DNA of 64,000 nucleotides, from contig OZ024755.1 in NCBI GenBank assembly GCA_964016885.1, positions 19,034,001-19,098,000 of the forward strand, given 5' to 3'. The translations under genes and the position numbers were made by a program. The notes beneath the pieces were generated by a model. That model was not told the DNA's origin, did not search any database, and saw only the letters and a program-made list of their open reading frames with translations. Positions 4,501 to 63,610 of the stretch are shown piece after piece. Positions within the stretch are counted from its first letter, which is position 1; each line of letters opens with the position of its first letter. Origin of the DNA: Eledone cirrhosa (Eukaryota).

Positions 4501-6974
4501 GAAAACCTACCAAGCAAAGGGTTGGAAGGAAGTCATGAGAACCTCCTTAGTGCTGGTATCATGATAAAATGCACTCAGTAGTGTGTAGAATCATATGTGA
4601 GTTATGGCCACTAGTTTTGGTTGGTTTGGTATCGAAAGGGTTAAGTCATTTTTGTAATTCACAAAAAAGACAGCTGAATCTAGTACCCTTAAGAATACTT
4701 TAATCTCTCTCAAATCCAGAAAAAGCTTTTAATGAAACTTTTTTTCTTTCTTAAATATATTTACATATATTTAAATAACTTAAAATAATTTAATATATTG
4801 TCTTATGATCATAAAGAATAAATAATTTTATATAAATAGCAATAATTGAAATTATTTAAAATTTGATGAAGAAAAAAAATCTTAAAATTCCATTTTTCTT
4901 CTGAATTTTTTAATATGCTCTGTGGTTTTCTTCACTTCACTGGAACAAGAATTTAATAAATTTGTAAACTGCTCCTTGTAACTTTGAATTTAGTGTGAAA
5001 TATCAAAAGAAAAGTTCATTATAATATAAAGAGCTGAGAAGAAAAAGAAAATATAAATAAACAAATCAAAGAAAATTTTGAAGTGGATTTGTAAAATGGT
5101 TTTTAAAATATGGAAGGCAAAAGAAAAAAAAAAGGAGAGGGGCATGTGATAAAAATAAAAAATATTTACTAAATGAATGTAATGAGTTATAAAACCAGTC
5201 AATTGAAGATTTGCTTCTTCTAAAAAAAAAAATGTCATGAATCAGAAGAACTTGAGTTATTGCTTTCACATTTAACATTTTCAAGCCAAATTGCTATAAA
5301 TCACCAGGCAACAAGAAGAGCTTTTGAGATAAAACAATGAACTAACAGGTTCCTTTTTGCTACTTAAAACACTACTAAATACCTTTGGCTGTTATTAAAA
5401 ATGTTATAAATCTGTGCCCAGAACTTCATTTTGGTTTTAAAGTTTAGACCATGAATCATCAGAAAAGCAAATCAAAACAGTAATCTGTTGACTATGAGAT
5501 GGCCTTATCTGGTTTGAATGATATAGGGAATAGCAAATATGATCTAATAGATTATTTGCCTTACAGAGATTTTCAAAATATATTACAAATGTCAATGAAT
5601 TGAGCTTGGATTGCAGTGAAAAAACAAAGTTTTTCAATTGAAGATAATAGGGATCAAATATTTAAATGCATGTGTGTGACATATATATATATATATATGG
5701 TGGCTGCCAACTCGTTTTCGAGTACGGACACTACTTTATATCCATGTAGGAGAACCCCTACCGATGCGCTGAACGAGTGTGACTTTTCAGTCCGGCCAGC
5801 GACTTGAAAACTTTGGTACAAACACTACACTTGTGACAATTATTGACACATAATGCTGGGCCCATGGTACCATGTGACGACAAGTGCAGAGAGATCTCCA
5901 GATATAAAGCAATGCCTGTGCCGTGAAGCTTTTATAGTGAGCAAAGGCACTGCACAAAGCCATTCCCACTCTCTTAACCAAGATGATATTTACCAAAAAG
6001 AAGAACAAGTCAACATCATTGGATACCATCAGGGTTGCAGGTGTTATACACATATATATATATCAAGCCAGATCAGTTCCTGTATGAGCAAGGCATGGTC
6101 AGCCGACCAGACACTGCCCACAACAGGACAACCCGTCTAACCCATGCTAGCGTGGAAGAACGGACGTAAAACGGTGATGATGATGATGATGATGATATAT
6201 CTGAGGAGCTATTGATTACAGGGTCAGACTCAATCGTGGTCGATTGTACTTTGAACTGAATAACAATGAAACATGTGTCATGTGTGAATAAAATATGTAT
6301 ATGAGGCAGTATCCTATAGTACATGTTGAATACTAACACATGAAAGTGATTAAAGATAACAACAATATTTGAATAATACATTTCTAGGATATGATTACAT
6401 AAATGTTCAGAATATATTTACCAATAAGATACAGGATTAAATGTATAAGTAATTTTGGAGATAGAAAAGAACAAATGTAAGGGAGAACCCAGGATATTGC
6501 AATTAGAAAGTGAACTTATTGTAACAACACACATTCTGTATGATAGTTAGTTGAATCAGGAAGGGTATTTATCCATAGAAATCATACCAAATATGGAATA
6601 TATGAGTAAGATGAGATCTCGCTGACTCATCTAGTCTTAGATAATCTCAAACTTATCCCATCCATGCTTGCAAGGGTGGGACGGGAACTGATTCTAGCTT
6701 GATTTCTACAGCTGGATGCCCTTCCTAACACCAACTTCATTTACAGTGAGTGCTGGGTGCTTTTTTTGCCATGGCACCTCCACGACCACTTTGCAGTGGA
6801 ATGATATGGACCCCAGTCCCTATCATCTCATTTCTACAGCTGAGTAAACTGGAGCAATGTGAAAATAAAGTGTCTTGCTCAATGAAACAACACATCACCC
6901 GGTCTGAGAATTGAACTCACAACCTTTCGATTGCAAGGCCAATACTCTAACCACTAAGCCATGTGCCTTCATCA

Positions 6975-9383: not shown

Positions 9384-9632
9384 GGGTAATTGTAGTGTTA
9401 TACTAATATAAACATAGGTACAGGGCATGGCTATGTGGTTAAGAAGTTCACTTTGCAGCCATGTGGTTTGGGATTAAGTTCCTTTGCAAAGCTCTTTAGA
9501 CAAGTGTCTTCTTCTCTAGCCATACAGATACTGTGTAGGAGCCTGTCATGTGTGATTGTGTGTGTATTTGAGCTTATTGCTTATGTCCCATAATTTAGTG
9601 GTTCTACACATAGAGATTGTTAAAGTAAGTAC

Positions 9633-12218
9633 TGGGGTTGATATGACTGACTAAATTGATGGGGTTGATATGACTGACCAAATTGATGGGGTTGATATGA
9701 CTGACCAAATTGATGGGGTTGATATGACTGACCAAATTGATGGGGTTGATATGACTGACTAAATTGATGGGGTTGATATGACTGACTAAATTGATGGGGT
9801 TGATATGACTGACCAAATTGATGGGGTTCATTTGACTGACTAAATTGATGGGGTTGATTTGACTGACTAAATTGATGGGGTTGATATGACTGACCAAATT
9901 GATGGGGTTGATATGACTGACTAAATTGATGGGGTTGATTTGACTGACCAAATTGATGGGGTTGATATGACTGACCAAATTGATGGGGTTGATATGACTG
10001 ACTAAATTGATGGGGTTGATATGACTGACTAAATTGATGGGGTTGATATGACTGACCAAATTGATGGGGTTGATATGACTGACTAAATTGATGGGGTTGA
10101 TTTGACTGACCAAATTGATGGGGTTGATATGACTGACCAAATTGATGGGGTTGATATGACTGACCAAATTGATGGGGTTGATATGACTGACCAAATTGAT
10201 GGGGTTGATTTGACTGACCAAATTGATGGGGTTGATATGACTGACTAAATTGATGGGGTTGATATGACTGACTAAATTGATGGGGTTGATATGACTGACC
10301 AAATTGATGGGGTTGATATGACTGACTAAATTGATGGGGTTGATATGACTGACCAAATTGATGGGGTTGATATGACTGACTAAATTGATGGGGTTGATAT
10401 GACTGACTAAATTGATGGGATTGATATGACTGACCAAATTGATGGGGTTGATATGACTGACCAAATTGATGGGGTTGATATGACTGACTAAATTGATGGG
10501 GTTGATATGACTGACCAAATTGATGGGGTTGATATGACTGACTAAATTGATGGGGTTGATATGACTGACTAAATTGATGGGGTTGATATGACTGACTAAA
10601 TTGATGGGGTTGATATGACTGACCAAATTGATGGGGTTGATATGAGTGACTAAATTGATGGGGTTGATATGACTGACCAAATTGATGGGGTTGATATGAC
10701 TGACCAAATTGATGGGGTTGATATGACTGACCAAATTGATGGGGTTGATATGACTGACTAAATTGATGGGGTTGATATGACTGACCAAATTGATGGGGTT
10801 GATATGACTGACTAAATTGATGGGGTTGATATGACTGACCAAATTGATGGGGTTGATATGACTGACTAAATTGATGGGGTTGATATGACTGACTAAATTG
10901 ATGGGGTTGATATGACTGACCAAATTGATGGGGTTGATATGACTGACCAAATTGATGGGGTTGATATGACTGACCAAATTGATGGGGTTGATATGACTGA
11001 CTAAATTGATGGGGTTGATATGACTGACTAAATTGATGGGGTTGATATGACTGACCAAATTGATGGGGTTGATATGACTGACTAAATTGATGGGGTTGAT
11101 ATGACTGACCAAATTGATGGGGTTGATATGACTGACCAAATTGATGGGGTTGATATGACTGACTAAATTGATGGGGTTGATATGACTGACTAAATTGATG
11201 GGGTTGATATGACTGACTAAATTGATGGGGTTGATATGACTGACCAAATTGATGGGGTTGATATGACTGACTAAATTGATGGGGTTGATATGACTGACTA
11301 AATTGATGGGGTTGATATGACTGACCAAATTGATGGGGTTGATATGACTGACTAAATTGATGGGGTTGATATGACTGACCAAATTGATGGGGTTGATATG
11401 ACTGACTAAATTGATGGGGTTGATATGACTGACTAAATTGATGGGGTTGATATGACTGACTAAATTGATGGGGTTGATATGACTGACTAAATTGATGGGG
11501 TTGATATGACTGACTAAATTGATGGGGTTGATATGACTGACTAAATTGATGGGGTTGATATGACTGACCAAATTGATGGGGTTGATATGACTGACCAAAT
11601 TGATGGGGTTGATATGACTGACCAAATTGATGGGGTTGATATGACTGACCAAATTGATGGGGTTGATATGACTGACCAAATTGATGGGGTTGATATGACT
11701 GACCAAATTGATGGGGTTAATATGACTGACCAAATTGATGGGGTTGATATGACTGACTAAATTGATGGGGTTGATATGACTGACCAAATTGATGGGGTTG
11801 ATTTGACTGACCAAATTGATGGGGTTGATATGACTGACCAAATTGATGGGGTTGATATGACTGACTAAATTGATGGGGTTGATATGACTGACCAAATTGA
11901 TGGGGTTGATTTGACTGACCAAATTGATGGGGTTGATATGACTGACCAAATTGATGGGGTTGATATGACTGACTAAATTGATGGGGTTGATATGACTGAC
12001 CAAATTGATGGGGTTGATTTGACTGACCAAATTGATGGGGTTGATATGACTGACTAAATTGATGGGGTTGATATGACTGACCAAATTGATGGGGTTGATT
12101 TGACTGACCAAATTGATGGGGTTGATATGACTGACTAAATTGATGGGGTTGATATGACTGACCAAATTGATGGGGTTGATTTGACTGACCAAATTGATGG
12201 GGTTGACATGATCAAATT
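9633..12218. repeat. 27-bp minisatellite, ~95 copies (gatggggttgatatgactgacYaaatt)
   Basis: Directly visible, highly homogeneous tandem array. Confidence 0.98.
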
Positions 12219-12717
12219 CACCCAGTTCACCCTGTAAAGTGGTAGTGCTGATGCCACAATAAAATGCACCCAGAAGGCAGTACTCCAGCATGGTTGCAGT
12301 CTCATGACTGAAGCCATTAAATGACAGCAATAACATTGAATGCATGCCATTTTTAGAGTCCAGGATTGATATGTCATATACACCATGACATATGAGCAAG
12401 CATACAAACTGGGAAATTTGTGTTTTGATATCTTACTGGTTTGCATAAGAGAGACTCATATGGAAGTGATTAAAGATAAAAATGATATGGAAACACAGTT
12501 GCCTTGGTCTGATCTGAGGATCACCTCCTTTCCCCTTTTTTTGTTTATTCATTTCTAAACATTTTCTGTTTTTATCAGGCATTTGTATTAACGCCATGTT
12601 GGACACATTATGAAGAGAATCTATTATATATATATATTATTTGTATAAGTTATTCTGGGTTGAATTGGCTGTGTACCACAGTAAGTAAGGTACTCAATAC
12701 ATAGCAGAGTATAAATG

Positions 12718-12966
12718 TTTTAATATAGAAGAGCTTCTACAGGACTAGAACTGTTTCATTTGTGAGAAATCATCAGAGCTTCCTGATGATTTCTCACGAA
12801 TGAAACAGTTCTAGTCCTGTAGAAGCTCTTCTATATTAAAATATATATTATTTATATAGAAATGACTTATACAGGGCTAGAACTTTCATTCGTATGAAAT
12901 CATTAGGATGATTTCATACGAATGTAACAGTTCTAGTGCTGTAGAAGTCATTTCTAGATAAAATAA
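12718..12966. repeat. Two adjacent related hairpins (arms ~55-59 bp)
   Basis: 12718-12776 pairs with 12783-12841 (one mismatch). 12848-12966 is a second, more diverged hairpin of related sequence. Confidence 0.9.
12775..12829 (+). ncRNA. Type I hammerhead ribozyme fold (Penelope-like element / retrozyme type)
   Basis: Stem I AGAGCTTC (12775-82) / GAAGCTCT (12822-29); core CTGATGA (12783-89); stem II T-TTC-tcac-GAA-T; GAAA (12802-05); stem III CAG-ttctagtc-CTG; cleavage triplet GUA ending at 12821. Confidence 0.8.
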
Positions 12967-13000
12967 AATATACTTATATACATATACTTATATATATATA

Positions 13001-13513: not shown

Positions 13514-13910
13514 TATTTAATTATGTCTCATATAAAATAATTGTTTCTACGTTTGGCACAAAGCCAGCAATAACCCAGTGCATTACTGGTACTTTATTTT
13601 ATCGACCCTGTAAGGATGAAAGGCAAAGTTAACCTCAGCGGAATTTGAACTCAGAATGGCAAGGGCCGTAACTCTATACGTCAAAGCATGGCGTCCGACC
13701 CTCTACACAACTGGCTATCCTCAAAATACGTATAGTTAGCACCCCAAACGTATAATTTGGATTATACTAAGGTATATCCTAATGTTTGTTGAGTGAGATG
13801 GAAGTCGATCGGAGTATTGCTTAAAGCTTTCTCTGTTAATGTATTAAGTATATATATATATATATATATACGATATTAATAAATGGAAACTATATTTATA
13901 AAACCATATT

Positions 13911-13975
13911 TATTTCATTATACATATTTCAGGGATACCACATTAAATTATGGTATGCCTTCATCAGACAAAATA
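13911..13975 (-). ncRNA. Minimal type I hammerhead fold, inverted twin of 14099-14163
   Basis: Reverse-complement copy with the same core and stems. Loop III reads ATGT, which is near-palindromic. Confidence 0.65.
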
Positions 13976-14098
13976 CAATATATAACAGTTTTACAAATAG
14001 CTTTGACGTACCCTTTTAAAATACAACCATTACTCCAAAAATAATGGTTGTATTTTAAAAGGGTACGTCAAAGCTATTTGTAAAACTGTTATATATTG

Positions 14099-14163
14099 TA
14101 TTTTGTCTGATGAAGGCATACCATAATTTAATGTGGTATCCCTGAAATTTGTATAATGAAATA
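14099..14163 (+). ncRNA. Minimal type I hammerhead fold, second family
   Basis: Stem I TATTTTGT/ATGAAATA (two G-U pairs); CTGATGA 14107-13; stem II AGGCATACCA/TGGTATCCCT (one C-C mismatch); GAAA 14144-47; minimal stem III T-ttgt-A; UA cleavage site at 14154-55. Confidence 0.65.
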
Positions 14164-14291
14164 AATATGGTTTTATAAATATAGTTTCCATTTATTAATA
14201 TCGTATATCTACTCCAAAAATTTGTCAAGTGCTTTATATCAGTTATAAAAATATTTACTTGTTGTATCCCAACAACTTTAAATAGATCTTT

Positions 14292-14352
<61 letters not shown>

Positions 14353-23887: not shown

Positions 23888-25650
23888 CATCATCATCATT
23901 TTACATCTGCTTTTCCCTGCTTGCAAGGGTGGGACGGGTCCTATTCAGCACAGCATCTCTCCACTTGTCACGGTCCTTCGTCATCTCCTCCGTGAGCTTC
24001 AGCGATGTGAGGTCTGCTCTTACCACCTCCGCCCATGTTTTTCGTGGTCTTCCTCTACTGCATCTTCCTTCTACTGGCATTTCTTGGCACTTCTTTACCC
24101 AGCGGTCATCGTCCATGCACATCACATGCCCATACCATCACAGCTTGCAATGTCCTCAAAGACCATTCCTCTACACCTAGTTTCCTTAGGGACCACCAGA
24201 TGACAGATCGGGGTACCCTATCAAAGGCCTTCTCTAGGTCAACAAAAGCTAGGTATAGTGGCTTATTCTTCTCTAAGAACCTCTCTTGTAGTTGTCTCAC
24301 TAAGAAGAGGGCATCTGTTGTACTTTTCCCAGGCACAAAACCAAACTGCATCTCATCTAATTTGACCTTTTCTATAATTAGTTGCGCTAATATTCTCTCT
24401 GCCACTTTCATAACCTGATCCATCAGTTTTATGCCCCTATAATTGCTCTTTTCCAGAGCATCCCCTTTAACTTTGTAGCAATTTATGAGAATACTGCTGC
24501 ACCAGTCTTTGGGTATGACACCTTCATATTGATTGATGATGCCTGCAACCAGTTTAGTGCCTACTTCTCCTGATGCCTTCAGCATCTCAGCAACTATCCC
24601 CGACGGTCCAGCGGCCTTACCATTTTTCATTTCCTGAATTGCCTCTTGGACCCTATATTCATCATCTCAATAGCTGGTCTCTCTGTCGGGTCTACTGGAG
24701 GTAATTTCTCTCTCTTCCATTCGTTCTCTACATTCATTAGTCTTTCATAATGACATTTCCAGGCCTCCTTTTTCTGATCATTCATGACACTTTTTCTGAT
24801 CATTTCCAGGCCTCCTTTTTCTGATAATTTTCCACACCTTCCTGTATGTCTCATTTTGTCTCTTGCTTACTGAGATGTCACTAACGACTAACCTATGCTG
24901 TGGGGTACATTCTTCCCTGGGGTATGCCTTAGTATTTGACACCATCTGTCTGTCACGCTGCCTAACTAGCAAGAAGTTAATCTGGCTTATGTGCTCACCT
25001 GATTTGTAGGTTATTAAGTGGTTGGTAGGTTTATTGAAGTTAGTGTTGCAAATGGTTAGTGCACGTGCATCACAAAATTCAAGAAGCCTCACTCCTTCTT
25101 CATTTCTTGAGCTGTAACCATACCCACCATGTACCCCAGTGTAGTATCCATCCTGGAGCTATCCAACATGACCATTGAAGTCCCCTGCTAGCATAACGAT
25201 GTCTCCATCCTCTGTCATTGTGGCTGTTCCCAAAAGTTGCTCGTAAAAGCAGTCTTTCTCTTCTTTACCTAGGCCTACCTGGGGAGCATAGGCAGAGATG
25301 ATTGTCAGCAGTCTCTTGCCTACAACTAACCTAAGCTTAATTATTCTATTACTAACTCTAACTACCTCTATTGTCTTATCGATCCATCTCTCAGCCAGTA
25401 AAATGCCTACCCCATCTAACCCATCATCATTACCTACCCAGAAAAGCTTATAACTAAGATGTTTGCCTGCAATTAGTCCTCCTGAGGCACCTCTCCATCT
25501 CACCTCTTGCACGCAGCACACATCCACATGCCTTCTCTCCAGCATCTCCGCTATCTCACCAGAGCTACCTGTTAGAGTGCCAACATTAAGTGTGGCAACT
25601 CTGAGATGCGACATCTTCATATTCTTGTTCTTATTCCTGTTGTGCGATTG
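23888..25650 (-). mobile_element. RTE-clade LINE, internally deleted and frameshifted (AP endonuclease, partial RT, 3' end)
   Basis: APE motifs RVATLNVGTL, CCVQEVRW, ISAYAPQ, AGDFNGHVG, PQHRLVVSD. RT motifs GKAAGPSGI, NYRGIKL, QFGFVPGKSTTDA, AFVDLEKAFDRVP. Near 24139 it jumps straight to the C-terminal WYGHV...RGRPRKTW and a (TGA)n tail, so the catalytic YxDD region is missing. Confidence 0.92.
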
Positions 25651-26056
25651 CTTGATGATGACGGTCAGTGTGTGTGTGTGTGTGTGTGTGGGTGGGGGGT
25701 GGGGTTCTCGCACATGGCCGCATCAGCCATCCCACTTTTCATATTACCCACTCTACTACCCCCAAGTATTGAGTACTCAGGTGGGTTATATATATATATA
25801 TAATGTAAAATTTAGAAAACAAATACTACCCCACCAACACAATTAGCAATAATTACCACTAATATTAAAACTGCCTATTTGTAGGGGTGTGCACTCTACA
25901 TTTATTATCACAGTTGTAGAAACACTAAAGAGAAGAATACTTGTTCCTTTGTAATAATCACTTTGATAAGTAACTTTCAGATAACAACAGCAAGCTAACT
26001 TTTAATTAATGACATTTTCTTACTGTTTATTATTTTCTTCTGTCGGTGGATTCTTC

Positions 26057-49747: not shown

Positions 49748-50228
49748 ACTATATATATATATATAGTAATAATAATAAATTTGAAGACTAAAATCCAAAG
49801 AGGGCTCGATAAGGATAAATATATATCAAATATATATGAACCGTAGAGCAAATATTTATTGAAATAACAGATTAAAGTTGAAGCAAAGAATCGCTGCTTT
49901 CACCCTTAACGGGATCTTCTGGTGAACGCAGAAGTGAATATTTCAAAAAACGTTGCAAACGGAGGATGACAGGAAGATGATACTTTGGTTCGTGGAAACG
50001 TTCCCTATACAAATAAGTAATGGTATAAACATAACATATACTTAGCTACCACATTTCATATATAAATATATAGAGAGTATATATAATATAATATAGAAAC
50101 TGTGTGTATATATATATATAATACTGAAACAAAGTCATCGAATAGGACCAATATAGCTTCAATCATTTTCCCACTTATTCAATGATTTAATTAAGTCAGT
50201 ATCATTATGAATGATACCAACCATTATT

Positions 50229-50281
<53 letters not shown>

Positions 50282-50482
50282 TGAAATGAAGATAGTTTAT
50301 TTTATTTTATCACCGGATTTATATGAAATAACATCTTTCTGTATGTAGACATGTAGGTGACAAAGGGAAATGTCACAGACCTTTTTACAGAGAAGGTGTG
50401 TGTATGTGATTTACTAAAACAGAGATCAATACATATGAGAAGTATGACAATGTTTATATATGTTTTACAATATATTACTTAC

Positions 50483-53400
50483 CCCATAAGTAGATGAATC
50501 AGCACCTCTCAATTTCTGATGCGACCCAACCTGGTAGAATTCAGACAAGGTACTCCTATCAGACCAACAAGCTCGAGCAAATTCACTGGCATCTAAATAG
50601 AAATCCATTGATGACATTAAACCATCAGGTGAATCATCATTTGAAGAGTATCCTTGTCCTTTTAATTTAATGTTGTTTTTATCTTTGGTCTGTTTTAAAT
50701 CATCATAACTTGTCTTGGTGATAGAGTCCAGGGATTCTGAGCTTTCGGATTCTGAGTTTTCATAAATAGATGATCGAATAATGTTGGCATAAACTGATCT
50801 AGATGTAGGCATATTTCTGTATGCTCTTTTCCCATCAAAATAGAGCTCATTCTCACTTTTGCTTAAATCATTATTAGATTTAGTTTGTGAAAATTGCTTC
50901 CAAGATTCATTCAATAATGTTGGTGAACCAATAATGCTGAAAATTTCATCACATAACGAACCAACTTCTCTAGGTGAAGAACTGTAAATATCTTGTTCTG
51001 ATTTTGATATATCTCTTTGATTTCCTGATAATGATTGTGTTCCTTCAGATGTGGCATATTTGTTTAAGATGTTTACAGAATGTCTTTCTTGTTTCTCCAT
51101 TATTACTTTACTTTTGTTATTTTCACTCAATTTTCGAATATTTTCTTGAGGTAAATCCATTTTTTCTTTAAGTAAATCCATTGGTTGAAGTTCAGAATCA
51201 ACAAATTTTCTTGGAGGATCAATAATTTGATCACCAGTAATTATTTTTTGATTGGGAATTTCTTTTAATACTCTTTCCATATTGAATGATGGTATATCAT
51301 TTGAATCAAGTTGCATTCCTTTGTTTGAATTTACAGGTTCAAAGTTCAAGTAAAATACATTCTCCTCAGCATCGACAGGTAAAACAACATCATATTCATC
51401 TGTAATAGGCACCCAATCCATATCACATGGTTGTGCAATGCCTGAATCTATTAATCTCCCAGTATCAACATCAACTGATAATGTATCAATATCTGATACT
51501 GCCATTGATACATTATCAAACTCAAGAAGTGGAGGTTCAAAACCTGAATCGACAAGTGGCTCACACTTCAACTCATCAATAGAAGATTGTATGCTCGGAT
51601 CATCTCTAATCGTATCTGAATCAATGGATGCTTCTTGATCACTATCTGAAGTCGGTTCTATTATTGAAGGATGAGAAATTTGCTCCAAGTTATTTTTCTG
51701 TAAATCACATGATATCTTTTCATTGTTTTTAAACTCCATGTTTGTTGAATCCATGTTTGTTGAACTAGGTGACCCCTGCATATATGAGACTTCAGGATCA
51801 TCTTGAGACAAATTATTCTTTAACTTAACAGAAGCAATGCTAACAACATTGGTATCACACATAGTTTCATCCATATCGACAAAAGGTATTTCATCCACAA
51901 TTTCAGGAGAATATGTCTTCTGTTCTGCAATAAATGGTTGCGCAGTTTCAGAGTCTGAAATTAGTTCAGCTTGTGATATATGTTTAACCTCCTCAAGTTT
52001 TCGCTCAGCCATCCCAGTGTCTCCATAATCTCTTGAGATAGTATCAAGGGTAAGAGTACTTGTCATTTCAGATGAAGGCCCATCAACAGAATCATAATTG
52101 CTTGTAATATCATCCGAAGAAGTTTTGTACACTTTTGAATTTTCATGCGCAGATTCTTCTTCAAGTGGCCTTTTAATATAGCTACAATACAATGAGGTTT
52201 CAACAAAATTTAAGGAATTTTCATTATTCTCCCAGCCCTCTTTTTCAAACATAGGGCTCTGGTTAAACAATTCTCCCTTGCAGTTAGGTGGTTTAGAAAT
52301 TACATCTAAATTACCAATTGATTCTTGCTTTAAAGTCAAAGAATTTTCTTCAGAGCTATCATCCTTTACAATCTCTGCTGAAGAATATCTCTCAGTAAAA
52401 CTATTTTCTCCATCACTGTTTGGAGTAACTGGTGTAGACTTCAAAATGTAATCCTGGTATTTTTCAGATGGAATACTTGAACCATCATCAAGGATGTATC
52501 CTCTCTTCCATTTGCCTTCATGTTTGATCCAAGATTCCTTTATTGGGGAAACTATTTCATCCGACTTTGGACTGAGGTTTTGCATTGTGTCTGCTTTTGG
52601 TATGTTTAGTGCCAAAGAAGAATTACTCCTTGAAGGGCTAATATTTTCATTAACATTCTTAGGACTAGGACAGGGACTTGTACAAAAAGCATCCAGTCTT
52701 TTAAAACTTGGTGACCGTTCTTTTCGATCAATTGAATTTTTTGAAGGAGATGGTGATTTTAAATCCTTGCTCGAAACTGATTCCTTTTGTCCACAAAGTT
52801 CAAGAATTTTCTGTTTCCTTAAATTGAGAGTTCCCTGAAGTTGCCGAAGTGTGAAATCTTGATTGGAACTATCATTGGTTTTCTTTGCTCCATCATTCTT
52901 GAGGAGAAGAAAGCCGCCATCTTCTAATTCCATTTCTTGAGAAATATCATCATCATAATTACAAATATTAACCTCCAAAGAATCAAATTGTTTCTGGTAT
53001 CCACAGTTAAAGCTATTATCATGTGTTCTTTCCATTGCTTCATTGGAGTTGATATCTGTTTCAAGTACACTTTTGTCATCTAAAACAGTATTTCCAGCCA
53101 AACTGTGTTTTGTTTGACTCTTAAAGTTATCAAGTTTCACATCAGCAGATCTAAGTTGGATATTCTCAGCTAGGGAATCAGTGTGAAAACAGGGGTCAAA
53201 CTGATGGGAATGTAAATAGGAATCCTTGTTAATCAGTTTTTCCTTACATCCAGATATTAATTGTTGATCAGGATGATCAAAATCAGCTCCCACAGAATCT
53301 GTTCTTAAATGCATATGTCCCCCCAAGTTTGAGGGTGGTACTTCATCTGATAAAATATCTGGAGCATCATCTTCACTCATTTGAGTTTGTAACTGTCTCA

Positions 53401-56400
53401 GAATAGTTCCATGAAAATTTCCATGAACTCGTGATGAAGTGTTGTTAGATTCAACACTGGGAGACTGATCAAGCAGTTCTTCTACATCTTCTCCAATACT
53501 AGATTCAGCTATATTTTCCAATGTGATTGATGTACTAAGATTTTCATATTGACTGTCTGTTTCTGCTTCAATTGTGAACCATAAATTTTGACTTTCATTA
53601 CTATCCAGTGTCACTTCAGCAAGATCTTCTCCAGCATCTACAATAGGACGCACTCCCATAATGTCATCATTTGTAAAACGAGCTGCTTCTTCATCGTAAC
53701 TTCTTTCATCAGTCACAACATAATCTTGTTCTTCAACAATAATCTCATCTTCACCATCTGGACTCCCAGACACTTGTAATGTACTGTCTTCAATTTCTAT
53801 AAGGACACCTTCAGTCTCGCCTTCTGCAGAGTCATTAACCTGCTTACAGGTATCACTTAGTTCATCCACATTGCTTATGTCATTCAGTTGAGAGGCTTCC
53901 TGGTCAAATATTTCCTGAACATCACTAAGGGGTGTGACAGCTCCATCACTGATATCTTTGAAGCTACTACTATCATTACTGCAGGGGCTGAGCATCTGAC
54001 CAGCAAGAAATCCCATTTCAGATGGTAAGAATGGGCCTGTCATCTGCCGAGTTGCATTAGAATCCAGTTGTTGCTGTTGATGGTGTTGTTGTTGTTGTTG
54101 TTCCATAAACAGCGTAGCACTACTCCTTGATAAGTCACCTTTCTCACATATGACATCTGTGTCATAGGTCTGAGTACTTGTCTGAGATGTGTGAAGATCC
54201 CCTAGTTGTAGTTTAGACGACGACTGGATCCCTTGTGGGTCTGCCATTTCCTGAAGGCTGCAGTTGGTAACATCAGCTTTTATTGTTGCTGTTACTGCAA
54301 GTAATGATGTTGATGATGATGTTGTTGTTGTTGTTGTTGTCACATCAACTTCCCCAAAACTTATCTGTTGTTTAAACAAAGCTTCTTCTCCAACATTCAC
54401 TTGTGTTAGTGATGTTGGTCTGTCTCTTTCTCTTTGCAACAACAGTTTGTTGACAGGGCAGTTGGCAGCTTCCTCATCACTTCTCTCAGCTCCCGCGAGT
54501 TCTCCTTCAGTATCAACTTCTCCCCTCAGAACTGTAGTAGTTTTGGTAGCTGTCACATCTTTACTTGTTCTGTCTGTAGTAGAAACTGGGTTACATCCAC
54601 CACCACCACTGTTTTCATTCCTCAAAACATTGTGGTGGGCTATTTGGGGTGGGGTGAACTCTACTACTGGCATCCCATGCCCTGCCACTCTGTAAATGTC
54701 AGCTGACTTAAATACAACCACTGATGCTTTCTCTTCTAACTTTTCACACTCACCCACTGCTTTTTTCTCCCCATCTTCTTCTGCCTGCTTTTCATTTTGT
54801 CCCTCTTCAAATTCAAAGTTAAATACAAATTTACTATCATTAATTCTATGAAGCTGTGGACCAGACTGAGCACTCCTCCCCTCATCTGTTGATAAACTTT
54901 TTAAACTATCCTCAGTTCCACTAGATTGGTGTGGTCGATGATAATGGTGTTGAGGGGGATGATGAGGGTATTGTTGTTGGGGGTGGGGCTGTCCATAGTG
55001 CTTCTGTGGCTGCTGATAACCACAGCTGGAGAAATTACAGTCATAACTAGCTTCATAGTCAAAAGTTTTATCAGAAAAAGCATCAGATTTAATTACAGCA
55101 TGGTCTGATAATTTTAGTTTTACTCTGTTTTCCTCTAACTCTTCTTTTCTCTCTCTTTCTTCTTTTTCCTCTATTTCACTCCACTCATCCTCACTGGTAG
55201 TAGGCTGGTGGTAACTACTGGTAACTTCTCTGCTGCAAGCATGGCCAGCTGACTGTGGGCGCCTGAAGCCAGTGTGTTTTTCAGTGCAGCTGTCACTAGA
55301 AGTGGGCACAAGAGACCCATTATTACACACATAATCCTCGTGCAAACTGATGTCCAGTGCAGAAGCTGAAGAACTTGTCGGACAGCTCTCTGAAGCTTCA
55401 ATATCAGAGAGGTGATTGTGGCTTGAAACACTATCTAAATCACCAACCTGCACGCTAGGCTCGGATATGCTTTCATCGGAAAGGGCCTCGGTTATTATCA
55501 TGTAGTCATCATAAGCAAAATTCTCCGAAATATTTGGTTTTGTTGATGAGCTATCTTTGTCAACTTTGTCTTCATTTTCAGGTGCGTCATCAAATTCCTT
55601 ATAACGTACTTCTGAATTTTCCACCTCGTTAACTGAACGCGTATTCTTAGTTTTATCCAACAATAACCGGTTACTGTCATAGCTTGCTTTTCCCTGAACA
55701 TTTTTACCAGCTGTTTGACTGACCCCTTTATTAGGCTGACCCTCTAACAACTTAGTTTTTTTCATACCAGATGAAATTTTAGAAGCAGTAGGTAAATTAG
55801 AAGTCACTTTATGGTCATTAATACTTCGACCTGTTTTTGCCACAGGTTGTTTCTTTTTAGATAATGGTTCAATAGTTTCATTTGATTTTAATGATGTAGT
55901 TTTTCTACCAATACTTGATACACTTTTTTTTATTTGAGTTTTATCAGTATTAGTGGGTGGTTTGCAGTCCTGACTGCTAGTACTAATTCCCGCTGCTGTT
56001 CTCCTCTCTAAAACTGCAGAGGTGCTACAGCGGACATTGCCTAATTTTTTATTGTCCAGTTTGTCAGCTGCAGTTGCAGCAGTAGGTATTGAACTACTGC
56101 TACCGCCACTAACTCTGCTAGCCTTCAATAAAGAAATACCACCACTGTATTTTTCTTTTTGATGAACCAAGCCTCCATTACTAATGCTTTGAGTTGAAGT
56201 TAATTTTTTATTGTGCGAAATACTTTTTTGTTGAACTGTACTGTCGGAAGAGGGGCGAGATTTAACTGATAAATTTTCACAACTTGCTTGTAATGTATTT
56301 TTTTTCTTTTTTGATAAATTTTCACAACTTTTTCCAAACGAGTTTTGGATTTTGTTTGATAAATTCTCTGAACTAACTGTTTTTAGATTATCTTTATTTT

Positions 56401-59400
56401 GAATTTTGCTACCTATTCTAGTTGTGCGGTTAACTGAAAGATCGGAAGATGAATCAGCAACTTTCTTTTGCCTCAGTGACGACAGACCACTAGTTTTAGT
56501 AACTGTTGTTGTATTAGGTCTACCAGTTGGAGGAACACTGAGTTTATTGGAATTATTTCTTAACGATCCTGTACTCACAGCTCTTTGTAAGTTTTCTGTG
56601 TTAACTCGTGACGTTAGACGTGAATGTGCAGGTGATGTCTTGGATGGGTGTGGAGACATGGTAGAATTACTAGACCGAGAGACAGTCGTGGATGAAGTGG
56701 TACGGCTAAGCATGGACGGTTGTTTTTGTAGTTTAGTTTCTGCTTTAGATACAGCTAAACGAGAACATGAACTTGTAAGAATTTTACTTGTTTTACCAAG
56801 CCCACCTTTAGTGGAACTTGGAAGACAAATAGAAGATTTAACAGATGAAGTGGATAACTGGGAACAAAAGGAAGAATGACTAGCATGGCTGGACTCGGAG
56901 TCTGACCGATGACGGAATTTATCATTTAATTCATTAACTACTTTGACTTCGTCAATAGCTGATTCACTATCAGCTAGTGATTCTTGAGAGAGAACTGTAG
57001 AAATATGTTTATCAATTGAAATTAATTCATTAGAATTTTTGGAACTTATATCACTGCTTGTTTGATGTTTAGCTTTACTTAATGCTGTGTTACGATGAAT
57101 TTTAGAACTGCTAACAGATTTACTACCCACGTTAGTATTTTTCAAATTTGCTATGTTTTTATCACCTTGTTTCTTAACAACATTTGTATCTCCGTTAACA
57201 ACAATAGAAGGTTTTTTACCTGTACATTTAGAAGGAAGCCTACTACTGTCAGCACTTGTGTGTTGGGTGGTTTGTTTGTTAAGTGAGATCTTAGAGGTCT
57301 GGTGGTCAGCCAAAGTAGATTTCCCGCGAGGAAGCTGGCTGGATTTCACAGAAGAATGCTTAGTCACCGAATTCATGTTTGTTTTTTGTTTTTGTTGAAC
57401 AGGTATTTTACACGGAGACGAACTTTTTTTCATTTCAACTCGATTACCGGTGGACACACCACCGTAGTCCGTAGATAGAATAATTTCTCCAGACCCCTCA
57501 CCGGAGATTCTGTCACATTTCCTATACAATGCCGATTTATGAAATCCGTCAGCAGTTTGGTTGTTAATAATTTTGGTAGAATCCATGTTAGTGTCTTCAT
57601 TGAATATTATCCACGTTTCCGAACCCGATTCGATGTCTCTACATACATCAATTGAAGAATGAAGAACATCGTCAGAATTATTATCACACAACACACGCCG
57701 CAGTTGTTCTAACCACTCTGCTTCTCCCTTCACTACTGACTGCTGTGTACTGGGTAATTTGGCAGGTATACTACACCTGTAATTGGTCGGATTGTTAGAA
57801 AACTTCTGTAGTAGATCTTTACATTTGTCAGAGTAGCATTTGTTATGTAGACGACACGAACGGTCGCCGTTTCCGTAAAGAAAATTATTAGTTTGAGGAG
57901 GTAAACACCACAGATGCTCTGTATTGACCGGTTTCGTTTTCAATTCCGATTCCGACAGTGTAAGTTCCACTATTCCAGTGTCTGCAATATCCTTATCTCC
58001 TCCGTCGTCGTCGTAGTCGTCGTCGTCGTCGTCTTCACCGCCGCCACCACTGCTGCAGCTGGTGGTGGTGGTGGTGGTGGTGTTGGATGTACCAACGTAG
58101 TTGGAATAGGTTGGTAAAAATGACCGTATTGCCGTAGAAGTGGGGTGTCCGTGTATTGCTGCTGTTGTTTGCTGTTTCAATAAGACAGAGCTACTACTAC
58201 TACTACTACTACTGCTGGTACTACTACTACTACTACTACTTCTGCTACTGTTGTTGTTGTTACAGTTGCCGCTATATTTCCTATGACTGTCAGCATGGAT
58301 AATAAACAACGGTAGCGAACCATCTTTCAGAACCGTATCGTTACAAACCACCGATATATGATCTGTGTGAACATCTTCTTCCACATCAACCACTGGTGGT
58401 GGTGGTGGTGCTGTTGTTGTTGCTGCTGCTGCTGCTGCCGCATTAGACAGTTCATTTCCTCTACAGCCTAAAGTACAAACAACGTAGTCGGCCGATTCGT
58501 TTGTGCTTACTCGACAGATTTCCTTATCAAAGTCAAAACTCTCACTACTTTCCCGCGATCTTTCTTCACTCTCGCTTACCTTAATGCGAGTGGTCCCTGC
58601 GACCTCACTACTATCAGTAGAATTAGTAGTAGTGGTTGTAGTAGTAGTAGTAGTAGTGGTGGTGGTGATGGTGTTATTGTTGTTACCTTTATAAGTACTG
58701 GGGTTGGTGTAGTAACGTTGATTAGAGGTACAGCAGCCACCGCAGTAACGAGTAGCTTCGATACACGGCGGCCCCTTTGTTGCAGAGGAGTGGCAAAGCA
58801 GCCCAAACTGATTTACTATATTTTCGGTGCCACAGTAATTACAACGACTGCTAACTTGCTGGTTGCAACAAACAGCTTTCGTCGCTTCATTAACACATAA
58901 ATTACTATTATGCTGACGAGAAGACTTACAAGGATTTTCAACGAGAAGAAAATGCGAATCTTTTAACTTTCCTGCAGACGAATTTTTACGATTTTTTTCC
59001 TGGTTTGTCAGAGATGGTGGTTTATCGCTAAATAATCCATTGGGTTGTGCCCGGCCTTCTCGTTGGGCAGTGGTGGTGCTGATAGCTTCTCTATCAAATG
59101 TGTTTTTCCTTTTATCATTAGTTCTAGCTTTATTGAATGTATCCCTGCTTCCACAGTCGCTCCTATTTTGTGTTTTCTTCGCTTCTTTCACGTGTTCGGA
59201 AATAAGTGTAGAGGAGGTGAGAACAACATTGTTAGAAGTAAGGGGAAAACATGAGGGGACCAATATCGTTTGGGCAGCATTTCCTAATGAAGTTACTACG
59301 GCTGGTGCTGGGCTGTAAAAAAAGCTGTTGCTAGAAGGCGAAGATGAAGGAGAAGATATTATCCCGCTATCTTTTCTAACGCATGTTTCTGTGGTTGGGG

Positions 59401-62400
59401 TAGGGTGAATAGGAATCTCAGTAGTGAAAACTATAGATGGAAAGGAAGATAAAAGTGATGTTTGGGGAGATTTTCCCCCTGCTGCTGTTGATAAAGATGA
59501 TAAATGCGATAAAGAAGGAACCAACTTGGTTGGTATCAAGCTTCTCCTCGTAGTAACAACATTTTCGCTGTGTTTATAACTGTTGTTGTTGTTGTTGTTG
59601 TTGTTGTCGATAGATTTTGTGTAAGTAAATCCAGGCAAGGGGTGAAACGATGTCGGGTCGGGCTCCTTTCTTCCCAGTGGTTCACTAACACAGCCAGCTG
59701 ACAACTGACCACTTATGGTGTGGTCAATACCAGGTTGAAAATATATAGTCTGGTCAGTGATGGGACATCGATAATATCCAACACTCTTTCCTTCTTTAGT
59801 CGACGACAGAACATCATGTTGTTCTGCTGCCTGGCTGTATGTAGTAGTAGTAGTGGTAGTAGTAGAGATAGTAGTAGTAGTTTTTGTTGTTGTTGTTGTT
59901 GTTGTTGTTGTCAAAGATGAAAAACTGAACAGATTATTATTGTTATTATTAGTGTCTACAGTTGAGTTGGTATGTATCGGGTGTCGGGTGGCTGGACTAT
60001 CACCTCCACCAATGATGATGTCATAGTTATCACTTTGGCTTTTGTTATCGACTAATTGGTATTTATTACAAATCGAACTACTCCGTCTTTCTACCAAATA
60101 TTGAGAATTATTAATATTATTAGTATTAGTAGTAGTATTAGTAAATTGATAATCGAACTTAGGGTTAGTCGAAGAAGAAGAAGAAGCGATAACATGTGAC
60201 TGTGGATACAAAATTAAATAATTTTTCTCACCTACCTCATTAATAGACTTGGTAGAAAAAGAACCAGCAAGTGTTGTAGTTCCTCGTTGTTTATAATTAG
60301 ATAATGATGACGACGATGCTGATGATGATGCTGATGATGATGAACAATTAAGCCGTGTTGTTGAAATATATTTAGTTCCGTTTCTATATTGTACCTGAGT
60401 GCCAACAATGTGGTGCTCTTTCAGTTCTTTCTCCTCCCTTTCTCCGCCGGGAAGTGCGCTTGTCGCGTGCCAAGTTCCTGGAATGCCTTTCGTAACGTGC
60501 CGATCCCTATACAATGCTAATTCTGTGACATTATTACTATCATCATTATTATTATTATTATCGTCGTCGTCGTCACAGCTGTCTAGCAAGTTGTCGCTGT
60601 ATCCACATGATTGGCAGCCACTAGCCTTCAAACGAGATGTTTTAAATTGATCACAGCAGCAGTTGCTACAGAGAAAATGCTTTGAAATGACGCAATTATT
60701 ATTATTATTGTTGTTAAAATTATCGATGACGATTCTTTTACGGAAATTATTTCCGTAATCTATTCTATTTCTCGAGTTTACCACTCCTGAATGCTGTTCA
60801 ATATTAACTCGGGTGTGGTCGGCAGTCCGTGACGCCCCTTCTTCTAACGGTACACTGTTTACACAACAATCGTTTAGTTTCAAATCAACCGTAACGGTCG
60901 ACTCTGTTCTATCAACTTTATTCACTTGACCGGAAACAGCCCTTGTCTTTGTAAAATATTCTGGTTGTTTACTTTTCCCAAACCCTGATAGGGAATTAAG
61001 TAATGTATGCTGGGGTGATATGTAATGTGTTTTATTAGAAATTTCTTTCTGGCATGTAATAATATCACCAGCAAGTAAGCCTTTCTTTACTGTTTGGTTA
61101 GTAAAACCTGTGGTCTGACATAATAAACCCAACGAGAGTTCATAACTTTGATCTTCTAACCGGTTATTCAAACAATCTTTACTTTGAACTGTTTCCTTTA
61201 TGTCACCGCCGGCTACGTCATTGTATATTTTTGGTTGACACGGATTAGCGACTTTCACATAAGTGTCCAAACTTTCAGTTGATCTCTTGTCTAAATCAAC
61301 TACACGACTTTTGTCATTGTTGCCATAATTTTCCAACAAATTATCTGTGGAAATTTCCGGGTAGTAATTTATTTCCTTGCTTGTGACCAGCAGCCTTGTG
61401 ATGACAACTGATGGTGTTGCTACTGCATTACTAGAGGAGATATCGCTTCCTAATTTTGGATATATTATCGAAGCTGAATGTTTATTGTAGCCAGTAATCT
61501 CTTGGCCAGTTCCAGCCGCTCTGGTGATATATTTAGTAATATCATCATCATCATGCTTGGTATTCTTACAGTGACCATTTCCCTGTCGAGGAAATATGAC
61601 AGTAGTAAAATCTCTCCCTGGTGAAATTGTCGATGTTGTTGTTGTTGCTATTGGCTTGTAAGTAGAAAAATCAGCAGCTGCTATGGGCGAGATAAATTCT
61701 GATACAACATTTAACCCGCTGGTCGATAATTTTTCTTCTTTGTGTGAACATAGCGGCGGAGATGACGGTATAGGGACTTGGTTTAGAAGTTCTGAATGAA
61801 TAATAGTGTTGTGTGAAATATTAATACCTCTATCTATAGGTGATGCTACATTTTCGGAACATTTCTGGTCTTCCAGAGCAAAAATATCAGTCGCCAATTT
61901 TTTATATTTAATGTGTGTTCTTCTATTTTTAGAAAATGTCGCCTTTTTAATTTTAATCATAAACTTGGCCAAGCCTAAACTTTTCCTAAGTTTTGATTTA
62001 ATAATCTTAGTTTTCCCAGCTTTTCTCGAAGAAAGTTTAGTTACAAAGCTAGGTAATTCTATTTCTTGTACCTTTGCTTTCTTATGAGAGCTGGGCGAAT
62101 TTAGAGTGGAAGTCGAAGTACATCTTGTATCGGGATTAAAAACAAATCGATTTGGGTATTTTGGAAATCCATCAAGCATCGATTGTGAATGCTTTTCAAA
62201 AATCAAAGGACTATCAATATTGGTGACCTTCTTTTTAGAATTACAGAAACTTCGAATCTCACAATTTTGTTTTCTTTGTACTTCACTAAAATCTGGATGA
62301 TAATTATCACCGTGTCCGTGACATCCCTTAAAATATTTTACATTGTAACCGGCAGAAGAAGCCTTTAACTGACCATGTTTCAAGCTATTTTGAGAAACTA

Positions 62401-62590
62401 TGTTTAAATCTCGAGAAGAAAGTAACAAAGTTTTATCAGGCGACTTCGTTAATCGGTTAATCGGTTTTCGATCTATCAATTTTAATCCTCTCGTTTCAAC
62501 AAGAGAGTTTTCCTGATCAACGGCTGAATTATTTAAGTCTAATTGATGTTTAGATTGGGAATGGTGGAAAGACTGTAGTATGCTCTTCAT
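50483..62590 (-). CDS. Giant coding exon (~12.1 kb, ~4036 codons) of an unidentified, largely disordered protein; spliced at its 3' end
   Basis: Stop-free 4041-aa ORF in AT-rich DNA. Its simple repeats are trinucleotide (polyN/T/S/D/Q/A/P), whereas the flanks are full of dinucleotide repeats. Donor TATGGG|GTAAGT at 50483/50482 falls after the Gly codon (phase 0), so the last 5 residues (VSNIL) are probably intronic. In-frame TAA at 62633-62635 lies upstream of the ATG. Candidate acceptor tttctcttttatttgcag| at 62677/62676. No folded domain recognised. Confidence 0.9.
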
Positions 62591-63610
62591 AATTACATTT
62601 CTAGAAAGGCTTTCAGCAATTTTCTCTCCAAATTATTTTCCTTGTCATTACATAAGTTCCCGAGAACAAAATATTTCTGCAAATAAAAGAGAAATTTGAC
62701 TGTAAAAAAACCTGAATAAACTTTTCTCCAAAATAGTAACATACTTTCCTACAAGCTATGTCAAGTTGACATATATATATATATACATATATCATAAGTA
62801 AATATATTTATTTATATATGTGTGTGTATGAATGAAATCACTACAAAGTGTGTCAATGTAAAATGATATTTATTGACATTAAAGGCACCAGTTTAGGAGA
62901 GAAAAGAGAAAGAGAAACAGGCTCATTGCATTTATTATTGTTGTCTCAGAACCAGACGAAATACAAAACTGTATTGATAGAAATTTCAAGCTAAAAAAAC
63001 CACAATCAAAAACTTCTATAAGAACTTCTGTAAGGACTTTTCTCTGAAATTTTCTTTGCAACTTATTTTCTTTATTATTATTCCATAAGTTCCCAAGATT
63101 CCTGCCGTATCTAAACATTAGATGTGACCGTGTTCTAACATAATGGTTTCATAATAAAGATATTATTTAAAATAAACCCAATTAAACGCATAAATACAAG
63201 TAATAAAACAAAACAGGGAGTCTGTAACGGTTTTGATTCTCACGAAAAAGCATAAATGTCACATCTCATCTGACATAGATAGTTTGGTATCCCCCGCCAC
63301 CCTGTCTTTGTTTCCTCATTATTTTTTAAACAATGTGTATTTTTTTAATGACATCTTTTTTCCAAAATTGTTTTCAAATGTATATATTAAGATTATGTTG
63401 GTGAAATAAAAAAAAAAGTTTTTCTTTAGTTTTAAATTGTAATATGTGATTTGGCAGCCATCTTTAACAGATCGAGCAACTGAGTAGAGGGAGACTCCTG
63501 GTGTGTGTTTGTGTGTTTGTTTTCAAAGTAATGTGCTATGAATTTATTGAAAGAAGCGTAGAAAGAAAGAATGAATGAAGAATAAATATCTAAAAATCAA
63601 TCAGTCTATT

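Follow-up and report, generated by a model that had tools for sequence, protein, structure and literature searches.

A hammerhead motif at 12775-12829 (plus strand) shares part of its sequence with a large hairpin, which raises the question of whether the locus carries an RNA switch used by a host gene or the remains of a mobile element. It was addressed in a stretch of 64,000 nucleotides from Eledone cirrhosa (the window) and by searches of the genome (3.0 Gb, 1796 contigs). The motif is real, and it proved to be an ordinary retroelement remnant, one of many thousand; evidence for a switch was not found.

Read 5' to 3', the motif consisted of AGAGCUUC (stem I 5' strand), CUGAUGA (12783-12789), a 12-nt stem II region (12790-12801), GAAA (12802-12805) and stem III, whose CAG/CUG encloses UUCUAGUC, followed by UA and finally by GAAGCUCU. 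The type I hammerhead core (C3 U4 G5 A6 N7 G8 A9, G12 A13 A14 A15.1, U16.1 H17) was complete. Stem III was made up of A15.1-U16.1 and CAG/CUG, with CUAG in its loop, and the cleavage triplet was GUA, with a predicted cut after 12821. An earlier note had read all core nucleotides, the 3-bp stem III with its central CUAG and the GUA triplet from the letters, and all were present. Its 8-bp stem I could indeed form eight pairs, but the native stem has six; 12828-12829 pair solely with the junction bases 12775-12776. The base pair at 10.1-11.1, usually G-C, was replaced by U-U, followed by three more stem II pairs. This closure had been called atypical, which does not hold within the family, where 21/21 variants have it. 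Stem II variant data from Lunse et al. 2017 reportedly exist and may bear on activity. Our own hammerhead scan, by core plus stems, covered the window on both strands and matched this site only. Rfam returned no family in the window at gathering score, and at E values up to 10 it gave 62 sub-threshold matches, all microRNA-type hairpins and none from a hammerhead family.

The surrounding DNA was AT-rich, of animal type, with many (TA)n tracts. The 59-bp hairpin described before was present, with arms at 12718-12776 and 12783-12841, a 6-nt loop and one G-U/mismatch position. Overlooked until now was a tail, by which the left arm extends 72 nt past the hairpin. The whole of 12646-12841 is one head-to-head insertion of a pseudo-LTR (pLTR; Table 1), and the complete type I hammerhead sits on its short arm. 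Of the eight nucleotides that make up the 5' strand of stem I, only six fall within the hairpin loop, where the earlier note had placed all of them; the two outermost, 12775-12776, are part of the left arm. The inverted, long arm has no stem I 5' strand, as had been seen, and in addition carries a CpG-type, G-to-A change in stem II. The arms differed at one CpG site only, and there was no A-to-G run.

Table 1 Coordinates, strand and characteristics of the insertion, its hammerhead and neighbouring insertions in the window.
Feature	Position	Strand	Remarks
Likely target-site duplication, left copy	12630-12647		TA-rich DNA; 17/18 nt match 12841-12858
Long arm: pLTR copy, CUGAUGA through core to tail end	12646-12776	-	131-nt alignment to L256
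Penelope-like element (PLE) tail, on one arm only	12646-12717	-	Ends at distal 3' end point, ~+88 to +94 after cut site
Short arm: pLTR from inferred +1 to proximal 3' end point	12777-12841	+	First 60 nt identical to L256
Hairpin loop AGCUUC, the native stem I 5' strand; head-to-head junction	12777-12782	+	Inferred RNA +1 to +6
Hammerhead core: CUGAUGA, U-U-closed stem II, GAAA, stem III with CUAG palindrome, GUA	12783-12821	+	
Stem I 3' strand	12822-12829	+	6 native pairs up to 12827
Likely target-site duplication, right copy	12841-12858		Matches 12630-12647
Second, older head-to-head insertion, related subfamily	12852-12962		~75% identity; both cores damaged
Third head-to-head insertion, different PLE-type family	13863-14294		170-bp arms, 9-nt loop, one-sided tail

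Folding predictions separated the two structures widely. In the 124-nt context that includes the left arm, the minimum was -98.6 kcal/mol, whereas folds retaining the hammerhead reached -25.2 kcal/mol at best, and the predicted probability of stem I was ~1e-48. When folding of the growing RNA was predicted, the hairpin formed once the core was transcribed, before completion of the ribozyme. For the isolated 55-mer, predicted probabilities were 0.996 for stem I, 0.52 for stem III and 0.06 for stem II. The stem III segment was predicted to form a CUAG-mediated dimer (-9.4 kcal/mol) and not to fold as a single molecule. The ribozyme is thus predicted to be unfoldable in every transcript in which the left arm is present as well. 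By these models its fold would be possible only in an RNA starting within the loop, and the window copy has no upstream promoter.

A host-used switch, in which hammerhead and hairpin alternate to control a transcript, would have two folds of like stability. The core is intact, and a lone 55-mer is predicted to form stem I and often stem III, as such a switch would need; its stem II, however, is improbable even there. With a predicted gap of >70 kcal/mol and a hairpin that precedes the complete ribozyme, the mutually exclusive folds of the earlier note do not amount to a meaningful competition, and hairpins joined head to head are what this retroelement ordinarily forms. The window copy, which lacks a promoter, was also indistinct from its paralogs, and no host gene was found to cross the site. 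The sole host coding sequence found in the window was a 4055-codon frame at 50465-62632 on the minus strand, without any Pfam match; it is rich in low complexity and has a possible splice donor ~20 codons before its stop. Pfam scans of 86 of the 102 further minus-strand frames gave no host exon, but a sub-threshold C2H2 finger at 5761-5931 and two weak chance matches. The frame with the finger is followed by a stop, a short trailer and (TA)n, and we take it to be the end of a LINE. At 12250-12980 and 49800-53000, contigs from four runs whose kind is not recorded showed nothing beyond piled-up repeats and unspliced coverage over the large ORF. The claim that the hammerhead lies antisense to a host gene was therefore not supported: the one large minus-strand frame ends at a distance of 38 kb, and these scans revealed no host exon downstream of it. 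Nor does its orientation appear to be chosen relative to a host gene, since stem I was kept on either arm. Among the first 30 of 193 subfamily pattern matches there were 22 hairpins, with stem I on the long arm in 13 and on the short arm in 9. Taken together, we regard a host switch as scarcely credible.

A DNA search with the window element gave 3129 candidates, and all 40 that were scored carried the same short element. The 30 loci fetched each had an asymmetric hairpin of ~200 bp in (TA)n, consisting of a long arm with ~70 extra bases and a short arm. Exact core matches with any 4-nt loop II numbered 23,451 genome-wide (control, 0), and the window's own stem I 3' strand had 2,099 matches. 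Conservation of the fold among paralogs, whose absence the earlier note had named as counting against its reading, was supported by compensatory changes in stem I, a variable loop II and a fixed core. In 21 distinct promoter-bearing variants, stem I had 6 bp with two compensatory changes (C-G/A-U and A-U/G-C) and loop II varied freely. Stems II and III showed no covariation because both are nearly invariant. The U10.1-U11.1 closure was fixed in all 21 and is therefore a family trait; N7 of the core varied (U/A) among paralogs. Stem I is natively preceded by C, so the two outer stem I pairs of the window copy derive from the junction.

The parent element was recovered from the same genome. In locus L064, two hammerheads separated by 5,966 bp enclose an uninterrupted RT/GIY-YIG ORF (713 codons, counted from Met), so the family retains at least one intact ORF. 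Stem I and loop II exactly as in the window are present in two further loci (L256 and L249), which both continue into the start of the PLE ORF, and copies of a sister subfamily run from the tail into the ORF. The L064 ORF has RWR, SDKT and YRDD motifs, a CxCX5C linker and, at its C terminus, a GIY-YIG-like domain that contains CxxC and CxH but no CCHH; motifs were read from an alignment (A1), YRDD by eye, and compared with the Hydra marks in PMC8557442. Pfam matched GIY-YIG weakly in this ORF (E 0.019) and better in a relative (P0054, 1e-5); no RT match was obtained for the L064 ORF. Homologs of the ORF numbered 1403, and the 120 listed had 38-54% identity. No PLE ORF was found by tblastn of the window itself. 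The inverted, 5'-truncated copy with a one-sided tail and the linkage of the pLTR to an RT plus GIY-YIG ORF (L064, L256, L249) are those of a PLE, and insertion into (TA)n is that of the Hydra clade, to which the motifs, linker, endonuclease features and target would assign the family. By sequence comparison, then, the window hammerhead is a standard component of the pLTR of a very common (TA)n-targeting Hydra-type PLE.

The 3' ends of the arms were of two kinds. Among 62 sister-subfamily arms, 30 ended at +15 to +23 and 21 at +88 to +94 after the cut site, while 3 continued into the ORF and 8 ended elsewhere. These two fixed end points agree with the two RT start sites described in the available part of PMC11167929. 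In L064, a bulged stem occupies the tail at ~+27 to +48 after the cut site, immediately past the position where short arms end; another small stem follows the long-arm end point but matched less well in our fold. Two unusual arrangements of the family were seen in passing. One locus (L069, G000:C1:83679000-83688500) has tandem units of ~1.07 kb from the family's 3' end, with nine hammerheads in the fetched stretch; each of them comes with a promoter and a tail, an arrangement in which dimer cleavage would find a natural setting. In L074 and L077 (~1330-1500), ~150 nt of shared unrelated sequence are attached to a clipped inverted arm, either a chimeric derivative or a duplication.

The 5' ends piled up at stem I. 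Positions are numbered from the first base of stem I as +1. Arms near the first 100 listed cores in the first 25 Mb of one contig were counted, with identical copies collapsed. Of these 96 distinct arms, 24 retained the promoter, 68 started at -1 to +9 and 4 started further upstream; the search pattern set the +9 ceiling, and later starts were invisible to it. A TATA-like box stood 29-33 nt before +1 in 21/21 distinct promoter-bearing variants despite differing spacers; the box formed part of the selection of variants, its narrow distance only partly so. The context at +1 was CCA-G, which we take to resemble an initiator. A 3' splice site before the core was considered as a cause of these ends, one being known in D. 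virilis from PMC4209133 (available part), and rejected: the truncated copies share no upstream exon.

Where (TA)n was joined directly to stem I, a G, which is not the native base, stood between them in 98/153 copies. A hand count of -1 in the first 100 (TA)n-joined copies gave G 57, C 27, A 16 and T 0. With native C in 27 and A in 16, the start is therefore not unique. At the control position (+3/+4), G was present in 1 of the first 100 of 295 matches. In native context, G at -1 was rare: a related pattern with C at -1 had 6,183 matches, and G occurred at -1 in 22/73 non-C matches, 12 of them from one cluster. This cluster (G000:C28:30.56-30.84 Mb) holds >20 hammerhead copies with a mutated -1, 12 with G, and probably reflects local tandem amplification. 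An untemplated 5' G is described as a mark of cap copying in L1 and SVA (PMC4859970, available part). The pile-up at stem I, the TATA-like box and the extra G together suggest a capped RNA that starts at stem I. The promoter of D. virilis Penelope is internal and TATA-less according to the part of PMC2377424 available, so a TATA start would not be general among PLEs.

The two arms reached +1 independently. In 8/22 sampled hairpins, as in the window, the tail-less arm kept stem I while the other arm had the tail. In a pool of 89 hairpins, assembled by pattern and similarity and thus non-random, +1/+2 was reached by only the short arm in 32, only the long arm in 22, both in 13 and neither in 15, with 7 unclassed. 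Junctions between arms showed microhomology and fillers, including (TA)n. Arms that reach +1 span the cut site, and their template RNA was therefore uncut. AT-rich DNA joined at the cut site itself gave 60 matches (25/30 inspected without a core upstream), vs 153 + 295 = 448 for the stricter patterns at +1 and +3; cut RNA may therefore be copied sometimes and is not the main template. In the orientation of the window, neither cDNA can have served as template for the other, because the tail is absent from the tail-less cDNA and the loop from the long one. This agrees with in vitro work, in which the PAc protein nicked and extended both strands, used two start sites and had uncut RNA as its dominant substrate (PMC11167929, available part).

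We propose that the pLTR promoter would initiate transcription at +1, the first base of stem I, giving a capped RNA, and that the element's endonuclease would nick both (TA)n strands. Two cDNAs would then be primed inside the uncut RNA, from two start points, one giving the short arm and the other the long arm with its tail. Each would extend as far as the RNA's capped 5' end, where the cap would often be copied as an additional base. The cDNA ends would lose a few bases and join via microhomology, and the less-trimmed end would retain stem I. The weak, U-U-closed hammerhead of the parent element would probably cut rarely, and only as a CUAG dimer or with help from the element's protein. On the genome comparisons, it is quite probable that 12646-12841 is a short non-coding head-to-head PLE pLTR insertion formed in this way from capped RNA, and the hairpin is likely a by-product of insertion. 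We would put at even chances the fuller account, in which transcription starts at stem I from TATA box and initiator, the cap is copied by the telomerase-related RT, the hairpin represents two full-length cDNAs of uncut sense RNA and the ribozyme decaps. The only possible product of the ribozyme at this place would be a decapped RNA, therefore a cap-removing control of the element's own transcript.

Self-priming was weighed against this two-cDNA model. A growing cDNA would fold on its own copy of stem I or nearby, which would template the G, and the second arm would be copied from the first cDNA. Self-priming has been proposed for inverted PLE junctions (PMC3846280, available part). ATG before AGATTC is the complement of the bases behind the stem I 3' strand, and perfect palindromic AGCT junctions do occur, four among those listed. 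It fits the commoner sister subfamily equally well, where ATG is a 3-nt extension of stem I. Eleven G copies with the window-type 5' strand were fetched, however, and 8 of them retained the 3' strand; in 4 of the 8 (3 clear: L231, L232 and L235) this strand could not have templated G, which was present where A or T was expected, so that self-priming is excluded in the three clear cases among the 11. A tail-less cDNA, moreover, cannot supply a tail, yet the tail-less arm kept stem I in the hairpins counted above, and self-priming leaves the TATA-like box at the correct distance without explanation. In Adineta vaga, Penelope elements have similar head-to-head inverted pLTRs, palindromic junctions and, in one pLTR, a TATA box with an initiator-like motif, and the authors favour self-priming on an antisense template (PMC3846280, available part). 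Here, the extra G and the asymmetry of tail and stem I favour two cDNAs from a sense, capped template, and we consider self-priming unlikely. Similar short hairpins number hundreds to thousands, as would be the case for a non-autonomous element (MITE- or retrozyme-like) that propagates itself, read-through hairpin RNA serving as the template for the entire hairpin. Junctions, however, vary between copies, the loop lies in either orientation, arms share the subfamily variants of their partner, and there is a continuum to full-length elements. The near-identity of the window arms, with their single CpG difference and no A-to-G run, also argues against copying of this kind, which is very improbable.

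The window copy and its family were set beside known systems. With the Hydra clade (PMC8557442) the family shares a single RT plus C-terminal GIY-YIG ORF, DKT, the CxCX5C linker, and CxxC and CxH near conserved E and N. Also shared are the pLTR hammerhead, (TA)n targets, the inverted 5'-truncated copy and the one-sided tail. The same source gives RWK for the Hydra clade, where the window family has RWR, a tail of 30-40 bp vs ~70 nt here, and hammerheads generally <3 kb apart, compared with 5.4-6.0 kb in L064 and L067, a spacing due to a microsatellite-rich 3' region.

Metazoan PLE hammerheads (PMC4209133) are likewise type I, in pLTRs, with a palindromic loop III and many solo or opposite-strand pairs, and, like the family's, are likely weak and dimer-dependent. 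They differ in their conserved G10.1-C11.1, where the window family has U10.1-U11.1 and only three further stem II pairs, and in stem III, which here has 4 bp and an 8-nt loop. U-U closure of stem II is a tolerated natural variant (PMC3088659). As in the model proposed here, Poseidon PAc of Anolis (PMC11167929) has two internal sites of RT start, by which the tail is defined, nicks and extends both strands and uses uncut RNA, and its hammerhead cuts only with protein. It belongs to a different clade, and neither the head-to-head joint nor the 5' junction or cap copying is dealt with in the available part of that paper. Metazoan non-LTR retrozymes (bioRxiv 10.64898/2026.07.22.740005) are also non-coding, PLE-related and equipped with a type I hammerhead, but occur as tandem units starting at the cut site. 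The window copy is instead a single inverted pair, starting at stem I.

Element, hammerhead and inverted arrangement all belong to kinds already known. Literature searches returned neither a stem I start with cap-like G together with the two-cDNA reading, nor cap copying by a PLE, the latter being weak evidence of absence. The interest of the insertion lies in its mechanistic footprint, as seen in genome statistics alone. How PLE head-to-head repeats form and what the hammerhead does are stated as open questions in the available parts of PMC8557442, PMC3846280 and PMC11167929. The start at stem I, the cap-like G and the independent reach of the arms turn them into a testable model of two cDNAs on a sense template. 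If it is true, the 5' half of the Penelope cycle is preserved in thousands of these fossils.

Other repeats were found near the insertion. The younger insertion (12646-12841) seems to have landed in the TA-rich flank of the older hairpin listed in Table 1. In the third insertion, each arm has a type I hammerhead-like core, that of the plus strand at ~14107-14155, with a long stem II and a minimal stem III. Its junction lies ~65 nt upstream of the core, and related copies with stem II variants were found (L004, L027 and L081). A 27-bp tandem array with ~97% identical units and long minus-strand open frames, probably a minisatellite, occupies ~9600-12200. A broken LINE at 24106-25722 (minus strand) has Pfam matches to APE endonuclease and RT. 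A 200-bp SINE-like repeat at 13525-13735 has 13 more matches in the window.
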